This document shows, piece by piece, positions 48,983 through 61,774 of a stretch of 64,000 nucleotides of DNA. The stretch comes from Escherichia phage WPEC6, in the sequence record PV763039.1. The stretch is one strand, 5' to 3'. Position 1 is the first letter of the stretch. The number at the start of each line of letters is the position of its first letter. Position numbers and translations under genes: made by a program. Under the pieces are notes generated by a model. The model did not search any database. It had not been told where the DNA came from and saw only the letters and a list, made by a program, of their open reading frames with translations.

Positions 48983-49455
48983 TGGCAGATTTAACTACGA
49001 TCAAAGTTTCTGATCTTACACAAACAACCTCTGTGTCTGATACAGATTTCTTTGTAACAGATCAGGCTGGAATAACAAAGAAAACTTCTTTGAAAGTGCT
49101 GTTGAGTGGTGCAGGTGTAACTAGAAACCGTTTAAATGCACGGGGAACAGTAACTAGCACCTTGGCATTAGATATTAGTTCAGCAGAATATTTTTCGGCA
49201 ACTTTATCTTCTACAACGTGCACAATTAGTTTTACTAATATTCCAGTAGCAACGAATGCAGTTTTAAACTTTACTTTAGCTTTGCGTCAAGGAAGTGGTG
49301 CAAATAAAGTCGTATGGCCTTCTTCTGTAAAATGGAGTTTTGGTCGTTCCCCAGTTTTGAGTTATCGTCAAGGTGCAACAGACACTTTTGAGTTTATCAG
49401 TTATGATAATGGTGCAACTTGGACAGGTAGCTTAGTTTTAGCAGGAGTTATTTAA
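48982..49455 (+). CDS. baseplate/tail protein (unknown role)
   Basis: ORF track; start overlaps upstream stop. Confidence 0.45.
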   Translation: MADLTTIKVSDLTQTTSVSDTDFFVTDQAGITKKTSLKVLLSGAGVTRNRLNARGTVTSTLALDISSAEYFSATLSSTTCTISFTNIPVATNAVLNFTLALRQGSGANKVVWPSSVKWSFGRSPVLSYRQGATDTFEFISYDNGATWTGSLVLAGVI

Positions 49456-52331
49456 TGTCAAGAGTTAAGCACAATATTGACAACACGTTTCAGTTGATTG
49501 AAGGGTTGGTTCAGTTTTTGGAAAGAAATACTGGGCTTACCATAGATCCTACGGTTCAGCACTACATTATCAACCCACAAAACGTATTGGCGAACAACAG
49601 ACACTTTATTAACTGGACAGCGCAGGAAGGGCAACCAAACGGTGACGCTACTACCGAAGGTCAATCTGTGCTTATCACTGGTTTTGCTTATGCATATTTG
49701 GCTACAGGAGATAAAAAATATCTTGAATCTGCCGAAAAGTATTGGCAAGCTTATATAGATGGCTTCTTCGGGGGCCAACCTATTCCTGATCCTCCAGCTA
49801 AGTATCGTCCTAACTGGATCATCAATGGTAAAGAACCACGTTTAGCACACTACCCTCTAACAGATGATGGCTACCCTACTCATGGTGGATTCAAAGGTAG
49901 TATGATGACTTGGATTAACGGAAGGACTGTTATTCCTAAAGGTGCGCCACATTGGGGAGAATACTTAGATAAAGCTTGGTTTGCTTTTAATGGCAATCTT
50001 GGTTGGAACTCCGTTAATGCAACAGTTTATGCAACTAACCCAGATGGTTCAACAAACTGGAAAGAATATGGAGATCAGTGGGACGTTGAGTGGATTATAG
50101 ATCGGTTAGGACGTAAAGTTGACTGGGATGGTAATATCTTGTCTACTGGTCATAGCTTTGCGGAATATGGCACGGTGCAACTTAAAAATGCATCTGTAAA
50201 CGGTAACTATAAATTCAACTATGCTACATGTAACCCCGTAGAACACGGTGGTTATCTGCTTAAGCGTAACGAAATGTGGCATAACCGCCCTGTAAACGTT
50301 CCGGTAGAGTTAGGTTATCAAGATAATGCTTCCGATGCTGAAACGTGGTGGTGTGATGCAAACTACTTGATGTATCAGATCACAGGAGAGAGAAAATACT
50401 GGCTTTGCTGGCAATCTTCTTTACTATTGTGTCAAGACTACTCAAACATCGATATGTTTGATAAATTCTTCCGTAGATCTACGACAGCAATAATTCCTTT
50501 TACAGATGGTATCTCTTATGATTACTCATACCCATCTACAGCAATACCTAAATATTCTCGTGACGAATTAGGATACACAGTAATACGCCAAGATGTTGCA
50601 GCACAAACAACTTTAGAACAACAAGCAGTTTGGTTCAGAGTGGATCAGAATTCAAAATTGCGTATTGAGTTTCAAGGTGTAGATGATGCAGGGGAAGGTG
50701 TTCTTTTCCGTCCAGAGTTAGAATTAAGCAAGACTAAGAGTGAAACAGACACAGTGACATATCGTTGCGGTTTACCTCTTGGCGCAGCTAATATGACTAA
50801 GATGGATATACCTTTATCCAGTTTTATGCGCACCGAACCCCCTGGAGGTGGTGTATATATTATTGCTGAACCTAGAATCATTGTTGACTGGGGAAGCAAT
50901 ACTGTGATACAATATAAATATGCAACTGGTATTGCTGGGACAAATAGTGATCAGATAGTATCTGCTAATATGGATTCAGATGGTGGTTTTACTGTTGGGT
51001 TTTGGTTGACACCAACTAAAACAGCCAACTTAAAATCTATTACGTATCGTTCATACGCAGATGATTTTAACATCACTATTACAGATTCCGCAGGTTGGAG
51101 ATGGTGGGCCATGTTAGAAAAAACAAATTCTGCATGGGTTACTAAAGCTTTAAGTCCTGCTGATTTCAAATTAAGTGCTTGGCAACCTAATCACGACGAC
51201 ACAGAGACAAAACCTTCGTCAATAAACCTGACTGCTGTTGATCAGATCAACATTGCATTGGATTCTGAACCTGCAAATGGCTTGACAGGGGCAATCGACT
51301 TTTATTGCGTTAATGATATCCCATCTTTGTATTCTTCAGCTACTGGCGATGATTACACAATGTATTTTAGGGTTACAGTTTCATCTGAAAATCCTTATAC
51401 TGCAAAACTTGGGGATTGCACAATACTGGATTACAAACTTAATAGTTTGAATTATACCCCAGGAATCATTCCATTCTCCAATATTAGCGATCCTAATACA
51501 GCATTATATGATGGTTGGCGTGGTATTCCTTACCCAGGATATCAATACCCATCCTTATATTGTTTTAAAGGGAGAGATATTGATTGGGTTCGTATGAACA
51601 ACAGTATAGACTTTTTATATGATTCACAAATGTGGTTTTATAATAAGTTTGCCCCTGTGATGCCTGGGCCAATGGCACAAGCTTATGTTTGGGATCGTTG
51701 GGATGCTCATAAATACGGAAACAAGAATGAGTTCACAATGTATCATTGGAACGATAAAGCTTGGGATGGTTATGAAGCACGAGCATTCTTCTGTGCGTGT
51801 CATACAGTATACGAACTGAAACAACGAGGAGCAGAAGTTCCTGCAAAACTTTTAACAGTTTGTAAAAACTGGATCAACTATCTGAAGTGGTTCCAAGATA
51901 ACAACGAAGGAAGAACACCAACAATCTTTTATCCTAACGGAGAAGTGGCAGCGCCTGTAGATGACTTTACAAGTCACATGTCTGCGCTATTTATGGCAGG
52001 ATGTGCTATAATGGGGATGGCTGGATATGATTCAGAAATTCCTAACATTAAAATAGTAGCAGACCGCTGTTTTGAACTTATTCAGGAAAATTATATTGTT
52101 CTTGGTCCTAATCACGTTATGAACGGTTGTTGGAGTGCTGCTCCTAGACCAGATAGTGATAACGGAGTCTTCTTTGGCTTCCACGCTGGAGAGTTGTTAC
52201 GTGGTTTTGGGTTGTATGCTTTATACAAAAAACTTAATCCCCAAAATGCATTACCTGTTTTGGATTCGAGCAATATTCCTGCACTTACTGTTTTGACAAT
52301 GGCAAACATTAGTGTGGACGTTACCGAGTAA
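49455..52331 (+). CDS. large baseplate-associated protein, possible polysaccharide-degrading enzyme
   Basis: 958 aa; N-terminal segment VLITGFAYAYLATGDKKYLESAEKYWQAY resembles helical-toroid glycan-active enzymes; W/Y/N/D-rich. Confidence 0.4.
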   Translation: MSRVKHNIDNTFQLIEGLVQFLERNTGLTIDPTVQHYIINPQNVLANNRHFINWTAQEGQPNGDATTEGQSVLITGFAYAYLATGDKKYLESAEKYWQAYIDGFFGGQPIPDPPAKYRPNWIINGKEPRLAHYPLTDDGYPTHGGFKGSMMTWINGRTVIPKGAPHWGEYLDKAWFAFNGNLGWNSVNATVYATNPDGSTNWKEYGDQWDVEWIIDRLGRKVDWDGNILSTGHSFAEYGTVQLKNASVNGNYKFNYATCNPVEHGGYLLKRNEMWHNRPVNVPVELGYQDNASDAETWWCDANYLMYQITGERKYWLCWQSSLLLCQDYSNIDMFDKFFRRSTTAIIPFTDGISYDYSYPSTAIPKYSRDELGYTVIRQDVAAQTTLEQQAVWFRVDQNSKLRIEFQGVDDAGEGVLFRPELELSKTKSETDTVTYRCGLPLGAANMTKMDIPLSSFMRTEPPGGGVYIIAEPRIIVDWGSNTVIQYKYATGIAGTNSDQIVSANMDSDGGFTVGFWLTPTKTANLKSITYRSYADDFNITITDSAGWRWWAMLEKTNSAWVTKALSPADFKLSAWQPNHDDTETKPSSINLTAVDQINIALDSEPANGLTGAIDFYCVNDIPSLYSSATGDDYTMYFRVTVSSENPYTAKLGDCTILDYKLNSLNYTPGIIPFSNISDPNTALYDGWRGIPYPGYQYPSLYCFKGRDIDWVRMNNSIDFLYDSQMWFYNKFAPVMPGPMAQAYVWDRWDAHKYGNKNEFTMYHWNDKAWDGYEARAFFCACHTVYELKQRGAEVPAKLLTVCKNWINYLKWFQDNNEGRTPTIFYPNGEVAAPVDDFTSHMSALFMAGCAIMGMAGYDSEIPNIKIVADRCFELIQENYIVLGPNHVMNGCWSAAPRPDSDNGVFFGFHAGELLRGFGLYALYKKLNPQNALPVLDSSNIPALTVLTMANISVDVTE

Positions 52332-61700: not shown

Positions 61701-61774
61701 ATTCTAGTAATGTTTCTGTAGGTAATACTGCGGTTATTCGCCCAACACCAGTAGTAGATGTGTCAACAACCTAA
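58721..61774 (+). CDS. tailspike/receptor-binding protein with parallel beta-helix
   Basis: 1017 aa; RBS AAGGGG; repetitive N/G/V/T-rich turns (FRNARVMYWGGAVRMFDC, NCTFKNGLYGI, IENIYLSNIDGTNAP) typical of right-handed beta-helix folds. Confidence 0.6.
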   Translation: MATFPTYPATSLEQGVDLVIFSSNQLHDVINGSATESIETESGLIPTLRKALVDNFFFKSPLDWAQGTNETVFNQLRYFQNGVLSGYYYAPNATLVNPIPMQGTPVGDNNWVLWGLKTEQLATEVTPWVYSGATGYETVISPPYIFDSAIVTINGVIQVLGEAFRIEDSKIILSEPLGHDPATGLPNKLFAYIGKIVASADTDPNLENRLVSLETKTEKLTESMDKVPLQTIARKYGLLDDEVAYATVGQSLTGIKALYDPVAQSSYTLPPNITGTLTSLSVSGVMTYSGGSVDLSALAVERGQFVHLPTSFGNNVTLTAKNQTIGRGAGRYRWAGSLPKSILASDTLETSGGLGPNAWVLTNTEGLLTPRGGTYNDLFDVVYLSEFANNTTTYTTPEAAFQAALTAAKASKSKILDAYGCDMTFTTSSFDIQDITLRGGVFRGQRDYRVQNATVEGTTFRNARVMYWGGAVRMFDCLWDGAPRAGQVGSLVFQGNPITGTFEIDNCTFKNGLYGILQQGTGEPVTRGVFRNLTFMDMQGDAIELNVINKHYDDGCVIENIYLSNIDGTNAPIPLSNWGIGIGVAGKGPYGYGIPDDQYCKNITIRNVFAKRCRQIVHVEVGRNISIENIHGDPDQTVSVGTGLATGAVVMYGSKDFTIDGVYGEPKTDGSTLASNIRMIYLEWGTNPVLDEEGNPVVPAQGRPSNPCFNYSVRNIHTKTGRVFAGVSAGPGYENRVSFENIRCAALQLFGVASWLSMSNITCNIFDCVGQPESGPGTFYDGFFRREKSVLEMVNVNCYPDGKTMVTGRPQWSRCRYSDIHRVNCNVEANMYTNIAGGIGAIVGTTGKVYYLEPNPSRNIDGMHFPTGKEFDKGDMIVKADNTFFLVTTSGAYIPDIPAFGIRATSAGDTFLTQNLTPNGTATNASWLYHYPLSAGTRIRIPGAGVDGADLDTVITRAPYQDNDTWTNPVKIDIADPIVTPTSAGVRIKTIPNDSSNVSVGNTAVIRPTPVVDVSTT

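Follow-up and report, generated by a model that had tools for sequence, protein, structure and literature searches.

The tail module of Escherichia phage WPEC6 lies in a 64,000-nucleotide (nt) stretch of DNA (sequence record PV763039.1; hereafter, the window), and we consider it highly probable that this module encodes a multivalent adsorption apparatus in which several appendages divide the work between them. The reading builds on gene identities, homologies, folds, conserved residues, linkage, and gene fusions; enzymatic activities, substrates, and docking partners are inferred. A preliminary description of the same DNA had proposed at least four candidate host-recognition proteins and a multi-receptor adsorption apparatus. 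The homologies and folds found here support such an apparatus, which is already the published view for this phage group: the multi-fiber/multi-spike picture is correct but known, having been described since 2012. The earlier count fell short, however. The four candidates are present, but the window holds six and the first 97 nt of a seventh, and both the 157-amino acid (aa) adapter and the 687-aa N4-like barrel protein had been missed.

The 12.3-kb stretch under study is 100% identical at the nucleotide level to Escherichia phages WPEC1 (PV659873.1), WPEC2, and WPEC4, and ~95% identical to the Phapecoctavirus genomes anhysbys, ukendt, phAPEC8, and ESCO13. The order of the tail module is the same as in Phapecoctavirus anhysbys and in the phi92-like phage muut (Justusliebigvirus). 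On sequence grounds, we assign the window as the baseplate-periphery block of a phi92/phAPEC8-type myovirus of the subfamily Stephanstirmvirinae. According to the listing of open reading frames (ORFs), all tail genes are encoded on the + strand; from the tape measure gene (43368-45356) up to the end of the window, they are closely packed and frequently overlap. The five ORFs that the preliminary description named (49455-52331, 56785-57816, 57832-58371, 58721-61774, and the collagen-like 61838-63862) were all recovered on this strand, and the positions it stated proved exact. The WPEC1 GenBank record annotates the same genes, and a PHROG tail family was found for each product (E between 1e-33 and 0). 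The annotated identical genomes and the PHROG matches thus indicate that the named ORFs are real genes and not chance reading frames. The genes in question are the following:

48982..49455, + strand: adapter, 157 aa, syntenic with phi92 gp140; PHROG 9017 'tail fiber protein' (E 3e-68)
49455..52331, + strand: toroid protein, 958 aa, phi92 gp141 family; predicted (alpha/alpha)6 toroid with beta-sandwich inserts resembling carbohydrate-binding modules (CBMs)
52340..54403, + strand: barrel protein, 687 aa, in the phi92 gp142 position; Calx-beta, NCTSP_N, and (beta/alpha)8 barrel
56785..57816, + strand: short tail fiber, 343 aa, counterpart of phi92 gp147 (fiber III); PHROG 4465 (E 7e-113)
57832..58371, + strand: tail fiber assembly chaperone, 179 aa, serving the short fiber; Caudo_TAP (PF02413, E 3.5e-07) and PHROG 136 (E 1.7e-33)
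58721..61774, + strand: modular tail spike, 1017 aa; PDB 6e0v, PF18668, and WcaM matches
61838..63862, + strand: collagen-like tail fiber, 674 aa, syntenic with phi92 gp151; PF18668, Collagen, and PHROG 15437
63904..64000, + strand: 890-aa tail protein, of which the window holds only the first 97 nt because its end cuts the gene; WPEC1 CDS330

In the mechanism we propose, the spike comprises a conserved anchor at its N-terminus, a CBA120/G7C-type docking module, and a putative catalytic region related to the phi92 colanidase and host WcaM, and would most likely cut through the colanic-acid slime. The collagen-like fiber bears a docking domain of this kind and is probably part of one branched complex with the spike. 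The adapter, toroid, and barrel proteins would make up a further appendage that binds, and probably hydrolyzes, conserved surface glycans, the barrel protein being the likely reader of the NGR glycan. The short fiber, folded by its chaperone, would establish the final contact with the lipopolysaccharide (LPS) core and trigger contraction.

The toroid protein and its adapter

The N-terminal region of the 958-aa protein had been likened in the preliminary description to helical-toroid glycan-active enzymes. By sequence, the protein has no Pfam, NCBIfam, or PDB match. A confident AlphaFold2 model built on a 36-sequence alignment (pLDDT 86.6, pTM 0.81) predicts an (alpha/alpha)6 toroid, but the fold is not confined to the N-terminal region and is instead assembled from three separate segments. 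Secondary-structure assignment of the model with DSSP places these at residues ~1-121, ~288-350, and ~665-935, while inserted beta domains take up the intervening residues ~122-287 and ~351-664; in the secondary-structure map, the toroid helices are drawn from residues ~5-104, 295-330, and 699-926. Using the model as a Foldseek query, we found glycoside hydrolase (GH) family GH48 and CBM11/CBM22-like beta sandwiches among the matches. Fold prediction therefore bears out the toroid, as it does the barrel of the 687-aa protein, whereas by sequence the 958-aa protein could not be matched to a GH or lyase family.

Across 19 family sequences, ranging down to 31% identity, E68, D294, E296, and D654 are the only invariant acidic residues. 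E68 is part of a TTEGQS motif at the N-terminus of toroid helix 2, and D294 and E296 belong to a NASDAExW motif at the N-terminus of helix 4. The candidate catalytic residues are encoded at the following positions:

49656-49658, + strand: E68
50334-50336, + strand: D294
50340-50342, + strand: E296

E. coli BcsZ, a member of GH8, contains TTSEGQS and then SASDGDVW, so that the motif order agrees with that of the 958-aa protein. E55 of BcsZ, in the first motif, is the GH8 proton donor, and the second motif is the GH8 family signature. We treat these BcsZ-like motifs as a lead and not as GH8 membership, which is rejected by sequence since neither PF01270 nor a profile match was obtained. Pfam searches with the full-length protein returned nothing at E ≤ 10, and a toroid-only construct yielded no GH8 match, its sole match being a weak C5-epimerase (E 0.018). 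In phmmer and profile searches against the PDB, we detected only marginal helix-hairpin matches (GH76, BT_3782, and cellobiose epimerase; E 0.02-0.12). Using hhalign, we aligned nothing between the 958-aa family alignment and BcsZ alone, nor, in global mode, between the toroid-only alignment and a 16-sequence BcsZ profile. Local alignment to this profile, which is narrow (at least 60% identity, drawn from the best 120 matches), covered only the six residues TTEGQS/TSEGQS (E 0.045, probability 1.2%).

The toroid family is present at full length in 520 of 533 phage records, with 30-55% identity, and occurs in phages of Escherichia, Salmonella, Vibrio, Erwinia, Aeromonas, and Pseudomonas as well as in jumbo phages; the Justusliebigvirus homologue is 83-84% identical. 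Sequence searches against the PDB found no solved structure for any member of the family. In the metagenomic sequence P0087, a fused P2 gpI wedge domain precedes the toroid; in P0092, the toroid is joined to an NCTSP_N and barrel protein that follows it, in the order of the two genes here. These fusions place the toroid protein at the baseplate edge. Toroid homologues of 940 aa (53% identical) are also common in chromosome assemblies of Enterobacter, E. coli, and Klebsiella, on contigs of up to 5 Mb (P0018-P0042), and the cassette of adapter and toroid probably resides in prophages or tailocin-like elements as well.

The linkage of the two genes is tight, the stop codon of the adapter overlapping the start of the toroid gene. 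The C-terminal ~100 aa of the adapter represent a conserved domain that sits beside the toroid gene across unrelated phages. A homologue of this domain is encoded by the small gene that immediately precedes the toroid homologue in the Aeromonas podophage Atoyac14 (E 1e-20), in Salmonella phage BP63 (Rosemountvirus; E 9e-17), and in LL12 (Vequintavirus) and the Vibrio phages D494 and Vp_R1 (E 1e-29 to 8e-10 with phmmer). The N-terminus of the small Atoyac14 protein is the T7 tail-fiber N domain PF03906, and in this T7-like phage the adapter-toroid pair occupies the podovirus tail-fiber slot. A C-terminal knob common to the adapter and the 674-aa fiber was found to be unsupported (BLASTP E 0.35), despite some common PHROGs.

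We regard the 958-aa protein as a candidate glycosidase or glycan-binding appendage, the chances of an active glycosidase and of a non-catalytic binding or scaffold role being about evenly balanced. Several observations count against such an assignment: the protein fails every sequence-level CAZy family test; it is conserved almost uniformly among hosts whose surface glycans are unrelated, which a specificity determinant would not usually show; and the 2026 cryo-electron microscopy (cryo-EM) paper on phi92 does not mention gp141 or gp142, places neither in the density, and leaves fiber II unassigned (PMC13450770). We judge it somewhat unlikely that the protein is a non-catalytic structural or lectin-like part of the baseplate, which has kept an enzyme fold but only scaffolds fibers or serves as a glycan binder with no cleaving activity. 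The small set of invariant acidic residues is located at helix N-termini in motifs resembling the catalytic ones of GH8, the CBM-like inserts are typical of carbohydrate-active enzymes, and in the podovirus Atoyac14 the toroid stands in the tail-fiber position as the only large appendage beside the adapter, all of which speaks against a purely structural part. On the other hand, such a part would better account for the full-length, 30-55% identical homologues in phages of hosts with unrelated glycans, and the P0087 fusion to a P2 gpI wedge domain, the annotation of toroid homologues as 'tail formation protein' in several phages, the retention of the gene in 52-kb Rosemountvirus genomes, and the lack of a significant match to any GH or lyase family, including the six-residue hhalign result for the GH8 profile, are in keeping with a structural role.

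A more far-reaching version of the glycosidase reading, which we hold to be rather doubtful as a whole, is that adapter and toroid represent a mobile two-gene receptor cassette of myoviruses, jumbo phages, and T7-like podoviruses. The toroid would then be an active, very distant GH8-like endoglycanase (with E68 as acid, and D294/E296) that acts on a widespread gammaproteobacterial glycan, e.g., cellulose or poly-N-acetylhexosamine, and together with the N4-like barrel would correspond to 'fiber II' or the fiber I arm of phi92.

The N4-like barrel protein

Pfam detects Calx-beta, NCTSP_N, and 'NCTSP TIM barrel' (PF23845, E 8.8e-79) in the 687-aa protein, and PF23844 and PF23845 pass the gathering score with 57 and 265 bits, respectively, against a cut-off of 27. 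The protein is homologous to gp64 of phage N4 (E 7e-30, and 1.2e-78 with a profile) as well as to N4 gp65, and it matches gp64 structurally. In comparison with chains I and M of PDB 9lc0, the 687-aa chain aligns to residues 44-130 and 340-416 of gp65, which comprise the N domain and the initial segment of the barrel; the remaining part of the barrel aligns to residues 108-410 of gp64. The N4 gp64/gp65 heterodimer may split over two chains what is one protein here. Two glutamates, both at strand ends, are conserved in N4 gp64, namely E455 within the invariant motif 'QIGEPWWW' and E568. These are the candidate catalytic residues of the protein:

53702-53704, + strand: E455
54041-54043, + strand: E568

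A homologue from this family is termed a 'glycan deacetylase' fiber in the literature (PMC8594841, PMC8669472). Our fold search favors a barrel of the glycosidase type over a CE4 deacetylase, and in our own interpretation the 'deacetylase' label may stem from matches to PgaB, whose C-terminal half is a GH153 domain. For comparison, we used the layout of acid/base and nucleophile in clan GH-A. The invariant 'GEP' at a strand end and the second invariant Glu at the end of a later strand resemble this layout, and despite the published label we find it unlikely that the N4 gp64-like protein is a glycan deacetylase and not a glycosidase-like barrel.

N4, the Vequintavirinae, and the phi92-like phages depend on wecB and nfrB, i.e., on the NGR glycan, and a homologue of the 687-aa protein is common to all of them (PMC8594841, PMC8669472). 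By analogy, this protein is a candidate binder or hydrolase of the NGR glycan and the likely NGR reader on E. coli K-12, and the literature makes it the best candidate for the primary receptor-reader on this strain. This assignment is weakened by the fact that NGR dependence is known for the Vequintavirinae and phi92-like phages and not for a Phapecoctavirus or WPEC1 (PMC8669472). Homologues of 623 aa are also found in Acinetobacter prophages, where they are often misnamed 'phage capsid protein', and others are fused to DUF2460 in elements resembling gene transfer agents (GTA-like elements).

The tail spike and the fibers

The 1017-aa spike consists of distinct modules. Residues 1-200 (58721-59320) represent a conserved anchor with 75% identity to the gp150 homologue of muut. 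Residues ~226-370 (59396-59830) match the N-terminal domains of CBA120 TSP1/3/4 and G7C gp63.1 (E 1e-25 to 3e-30), and Pfam detects PF18668 in the spike (E 2.4e-09). Residues ~425-1000 (59993-61720) match the crystal structure of phi92 gp150 (PDB 6E0V; E 2.1e-78), in agreement with the beta-helix tailspike proposed earlier, and on the basis of this match the region is presumed to be a beta-helix. Within it, residues 502-662 match NCBIfam WcaM (E 1.1e-25) with ~90 bits, compared to an equivalog cut-off of ~800. WcaM is a protein of the host colanic-acid gene cluster, and the label 'colanic acid degradation' probably derives from this match. At least 80% of the spike is covered in 70 of 795 matching records, and anchor, docking module, and catalytic region occur separately in other phage groups, which makes the spike a mosaic; at least 95% conservation is seen in 64 records, mostly from coliphages of varied E. 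coli hosts.

From these matches, we regard the spike as a candidate colanic-acid depolymerase that most likely cuts colanic-acid slime. Two points speak against this assignment, namely that the gp150-matched C-terminal region is only 33% identical to its muut homologue, so that its substrate could differ, and that the colanidase activity of phi92 gp150 itself is termed only 'potential' (PMC13450770). We consider it improbable that the spike targets a non-colanic polysaccharide, such as O-antigen or capsule, with 'colanic acid degradation' as an over-transferred annotation. Such a target would be consistent with the 33% identity to the Justusliebigvirus homologue, with the free exchange and mosaic distribution of tail-spike modules, and with a WcaM score far under the equivalog cut-off, but two independent homology links, phi92 gp150 and host WcaM, lead to colanic acid, and the conservation of the spike in the 64 records from varied E. 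coli hosts fits a pan-E. coli target better than a serotype antigen. Whereas the preliminary description suggested capsule or LPS depolymerase activity, the sequence matches make colanic acid, an exopolysaccharide, and the NGR glycan the likely polymer targets, rather than capsule or O-antigen.

The 343-aa short fiber is 74% identical to the product of the syntenic muut gene, and its N-terminal part is matched by chain 9cuy_c, a 'Short tail fiber' (E 6e-08). The gene is followed by that of the Caudo_TAP chaperone, which confirms the short fiber with assembly protein noted earlier. The short fiber/chaperone locus of relatives is homologous to Mu gpS/gpU, and these relatives depend on the LPS core (PMC8594841). 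By analogy, the short fiber is a candidate binder of the terminal receptor at the LPS core. Residues ~227-290 (57460-57650) form a low-complexity, heptad-like stretch of Asn, Gln, Ser, and Leu with NSLQ repeats, which yields spurious Pfam matches to apolipoprotein-type helices. The muut short fiber is 18 residues shorter exactly at this stretch, and the anhysbys record marks a repeat_region there; the stretch is a coiled-coil shaft of variable length.

Two baseplate genes precede the short fiber:

54656..56775, + strand: two baseplate wedge genes, 495 aa (Baseplate_J-like) and 209 aa; Pfam Baseplate_J (E 4.6e-08), DUF2612, PHROG 6, and PHROG 4056

In phi92, fibers I and III are borne by a wedge built from the syntenic gp145/gp146, and fiber III is gp147 (PMC13450770). 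By comparison, the two wedge genes here would provide the platform for fiber attachment.

The collagen-like fiber of the preliminary description was confirmed by its Collagen repeats (E 1.5e-14, two Gly-X-Y stretches), although its gene (61838-63862) is located outside the end coordinate given there. The 674-aa protein also matches PF18668 (E 1.2e-19) and PHROG 15437 (E 0), carries an N-terminal domain of the TSP1/gp66 type, and matches the 'Putative tail fiber protein' chain 9cuy_g with its C-terminal residues 559-671 (E 7e-08). Directly downstream, the first 32 codons from position 63904 are identical to WPEC1 CDS330. The full 890-aa protein in GenBank contains an RCC1-like domain (E 2.3e-11; 44 bits, under the curated cut-off of 150) and Big_2 (E 3.7e-07), which makes it a seventh candidate with a putative RCC1-like beta-propeller and Big_2. 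This protein has been named TfpM1, and Justusliebigviruses are without a counterpart (PMC12695924).

Neighboring genes and comparison with known systems

One further gene separates the chaperone and the spike:

58382-58717: 'lipoprotein', 111 aa; PHROG 15210

The N-terminal segment of its product is hydrophobic, and a coiled coil is predicted behind it. An ATG-started ORF of 166 aa on the minus strand (57843-58343) runs antisense across nearly the whole tail fiber assembly gene; it is unannotated in WPEC1 and probably a chance ORF. Over the window (1-64000), the GC skew flips its sign at ~10-12 kb and again at ~29-30 kb, which fits a minus-strand gene block between two plus-strand blocks, and in the WPEC1 record the flanking minus-strand genes include DNA polymerase and ribonucleotide reductase.

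The variable spike slot after the gp142 homologue, which in phi92 is occupied by the endosialidase gp143, is empty here, the 687-aa gene adjoining an 86-aa gene (54396-54410). In anhysbys, the same slot (L002:9048-11645) contains a gene for a 691-aa GDSL/SGNH esterase and two small ORFs, one of which is annotated as similar to tail spike protein 3. The protein in the gp142 position has 717 aa in anhysbys compared to 687 aa here, with the difference confined to the last few residues. We rejected the idea that an empty slot is peculiar to WPEC1 since the slot is also empty in the Justusliebigvirus muut. A gene in this slot is an optional and not a core trait of phi92/phAPEC8-type modules.

Some records from other stated hosts match the coliphage tail genes. 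These are the unannotated MG065650.1 and MG065672.1 ('Campylobacter phage B15' and 'A141', host C. jejuni), with ~95% DNA identity for B15 and a Vequintavirus-type toroid protein in A141, and OP562383.1 ('Acinetobacter phage vB_AbaM_ABPW7'), with 99% protein identity. The stated hosts of these three records look doubtful, or else the phages cross genera.

Phapecoctaviruses and phi92-like phages are among the coliphages with the broadest host ranges and are used in therapeutic and biocontrol cocktails, and host-range engineering depends on knowing the glycan that each appendage reads. Phapecoctaviruses showed the broadest host range in one collection (PMC10844046) and were obtained when phages were sought a second time, with resistant variants of E. 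coli ST410 as targets, one of which overproduced colanic acid; the phage ids hint, without being proof, that this mutant served as isolation host (PMC12753057). In the DepoScope survey of phage depolymerases, alpha/alpha-toroid and TIM-barrel folds account for ~1% each (PMC11326577). The toroid and the N4-like barrel thus combine rare depolymerase folds with a place among the most conserved 'fiber' genes, and the candidate catalytic residues named above allow both to be tested directly. One tail module may even carry all four DepoScope fold classes (toroid, barrel, presumed beta-helix, and propeller-like), of which modeling confirms the toroid and the barrel only (PMC11326577).

For phi92, at least five tail spikes or fibers are reported, and a table in a 2017 review lists gp141 and gp142 each as 'glycosidase', gp150 as a colanidase spike, and gp151 as a fiber, citing Schwarzer 2012 (PMC5380687); the Schwarzer 2012 assignments are given here as relayed by PMC5380687, PMC8594841, and PMC13450770. 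[quoted passage not shown] The presence of several fibers on one virion is documented by cryo-EM for phi92 (PMC13450770) and follows from homology here.

The order of the phi92 apparatus, i.e., tape measure, hub, spike, gp140-142, wedge, short fiber with chaperone, gp150, and gp151, is retained in WPEC1, whose slot is without a counterpart of the endosialidase gp143. Compared to the phi92-type spike of muut, the WPEC1 spike contains an extra TSP-type module of ~215 aa next to the divergent catalytic part, and compared to the phi92-like Justusliebigviruses, WPEC1 additionally encodes the 890-aa RCC1/Big_2 protein. With the gp64/gp65 sheath heterodimer of N4 (PDB 9LC0, 9YF4), the 687-aa protein shares a homologous barrel and N-terminal domain, including the conserved 'QIGEPWWW' and the second Glu. 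It differs in being a single chain with an extra Calx-beta domain in the baseplate of a contractile tail, and it is without the long C-terminal domains of gp65 that serve NfrA binding and tail gating in N4. The GH8 enzymes, such as E. coli BcsZ and C. perfringens CPF_2247, have the toroid fold predicted for the 958-aa protein, and its TTEGQS and NASDAE may correspond to the (T/S)EGQ- and ASD-type motifs seen in BcsZ, but the likeness does not extend to sequence membership. The TSP1-4 complex of CBA120 (Ackermannviridae) and the gp63.1/gp66 complex of G7C share with WPEC1 the N-terminal TSP domains, found here in residues 226-370 of the spike and residues 12-80 of the 674-aa fiber (PF18668; PDB 4oj5, 5w6f, 5w6h, 4qnl). 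In contrast, the toroid, barrel, and short fiber are without counterparts in these complexes, and a docking hierarchy of the XD type is only putative here.

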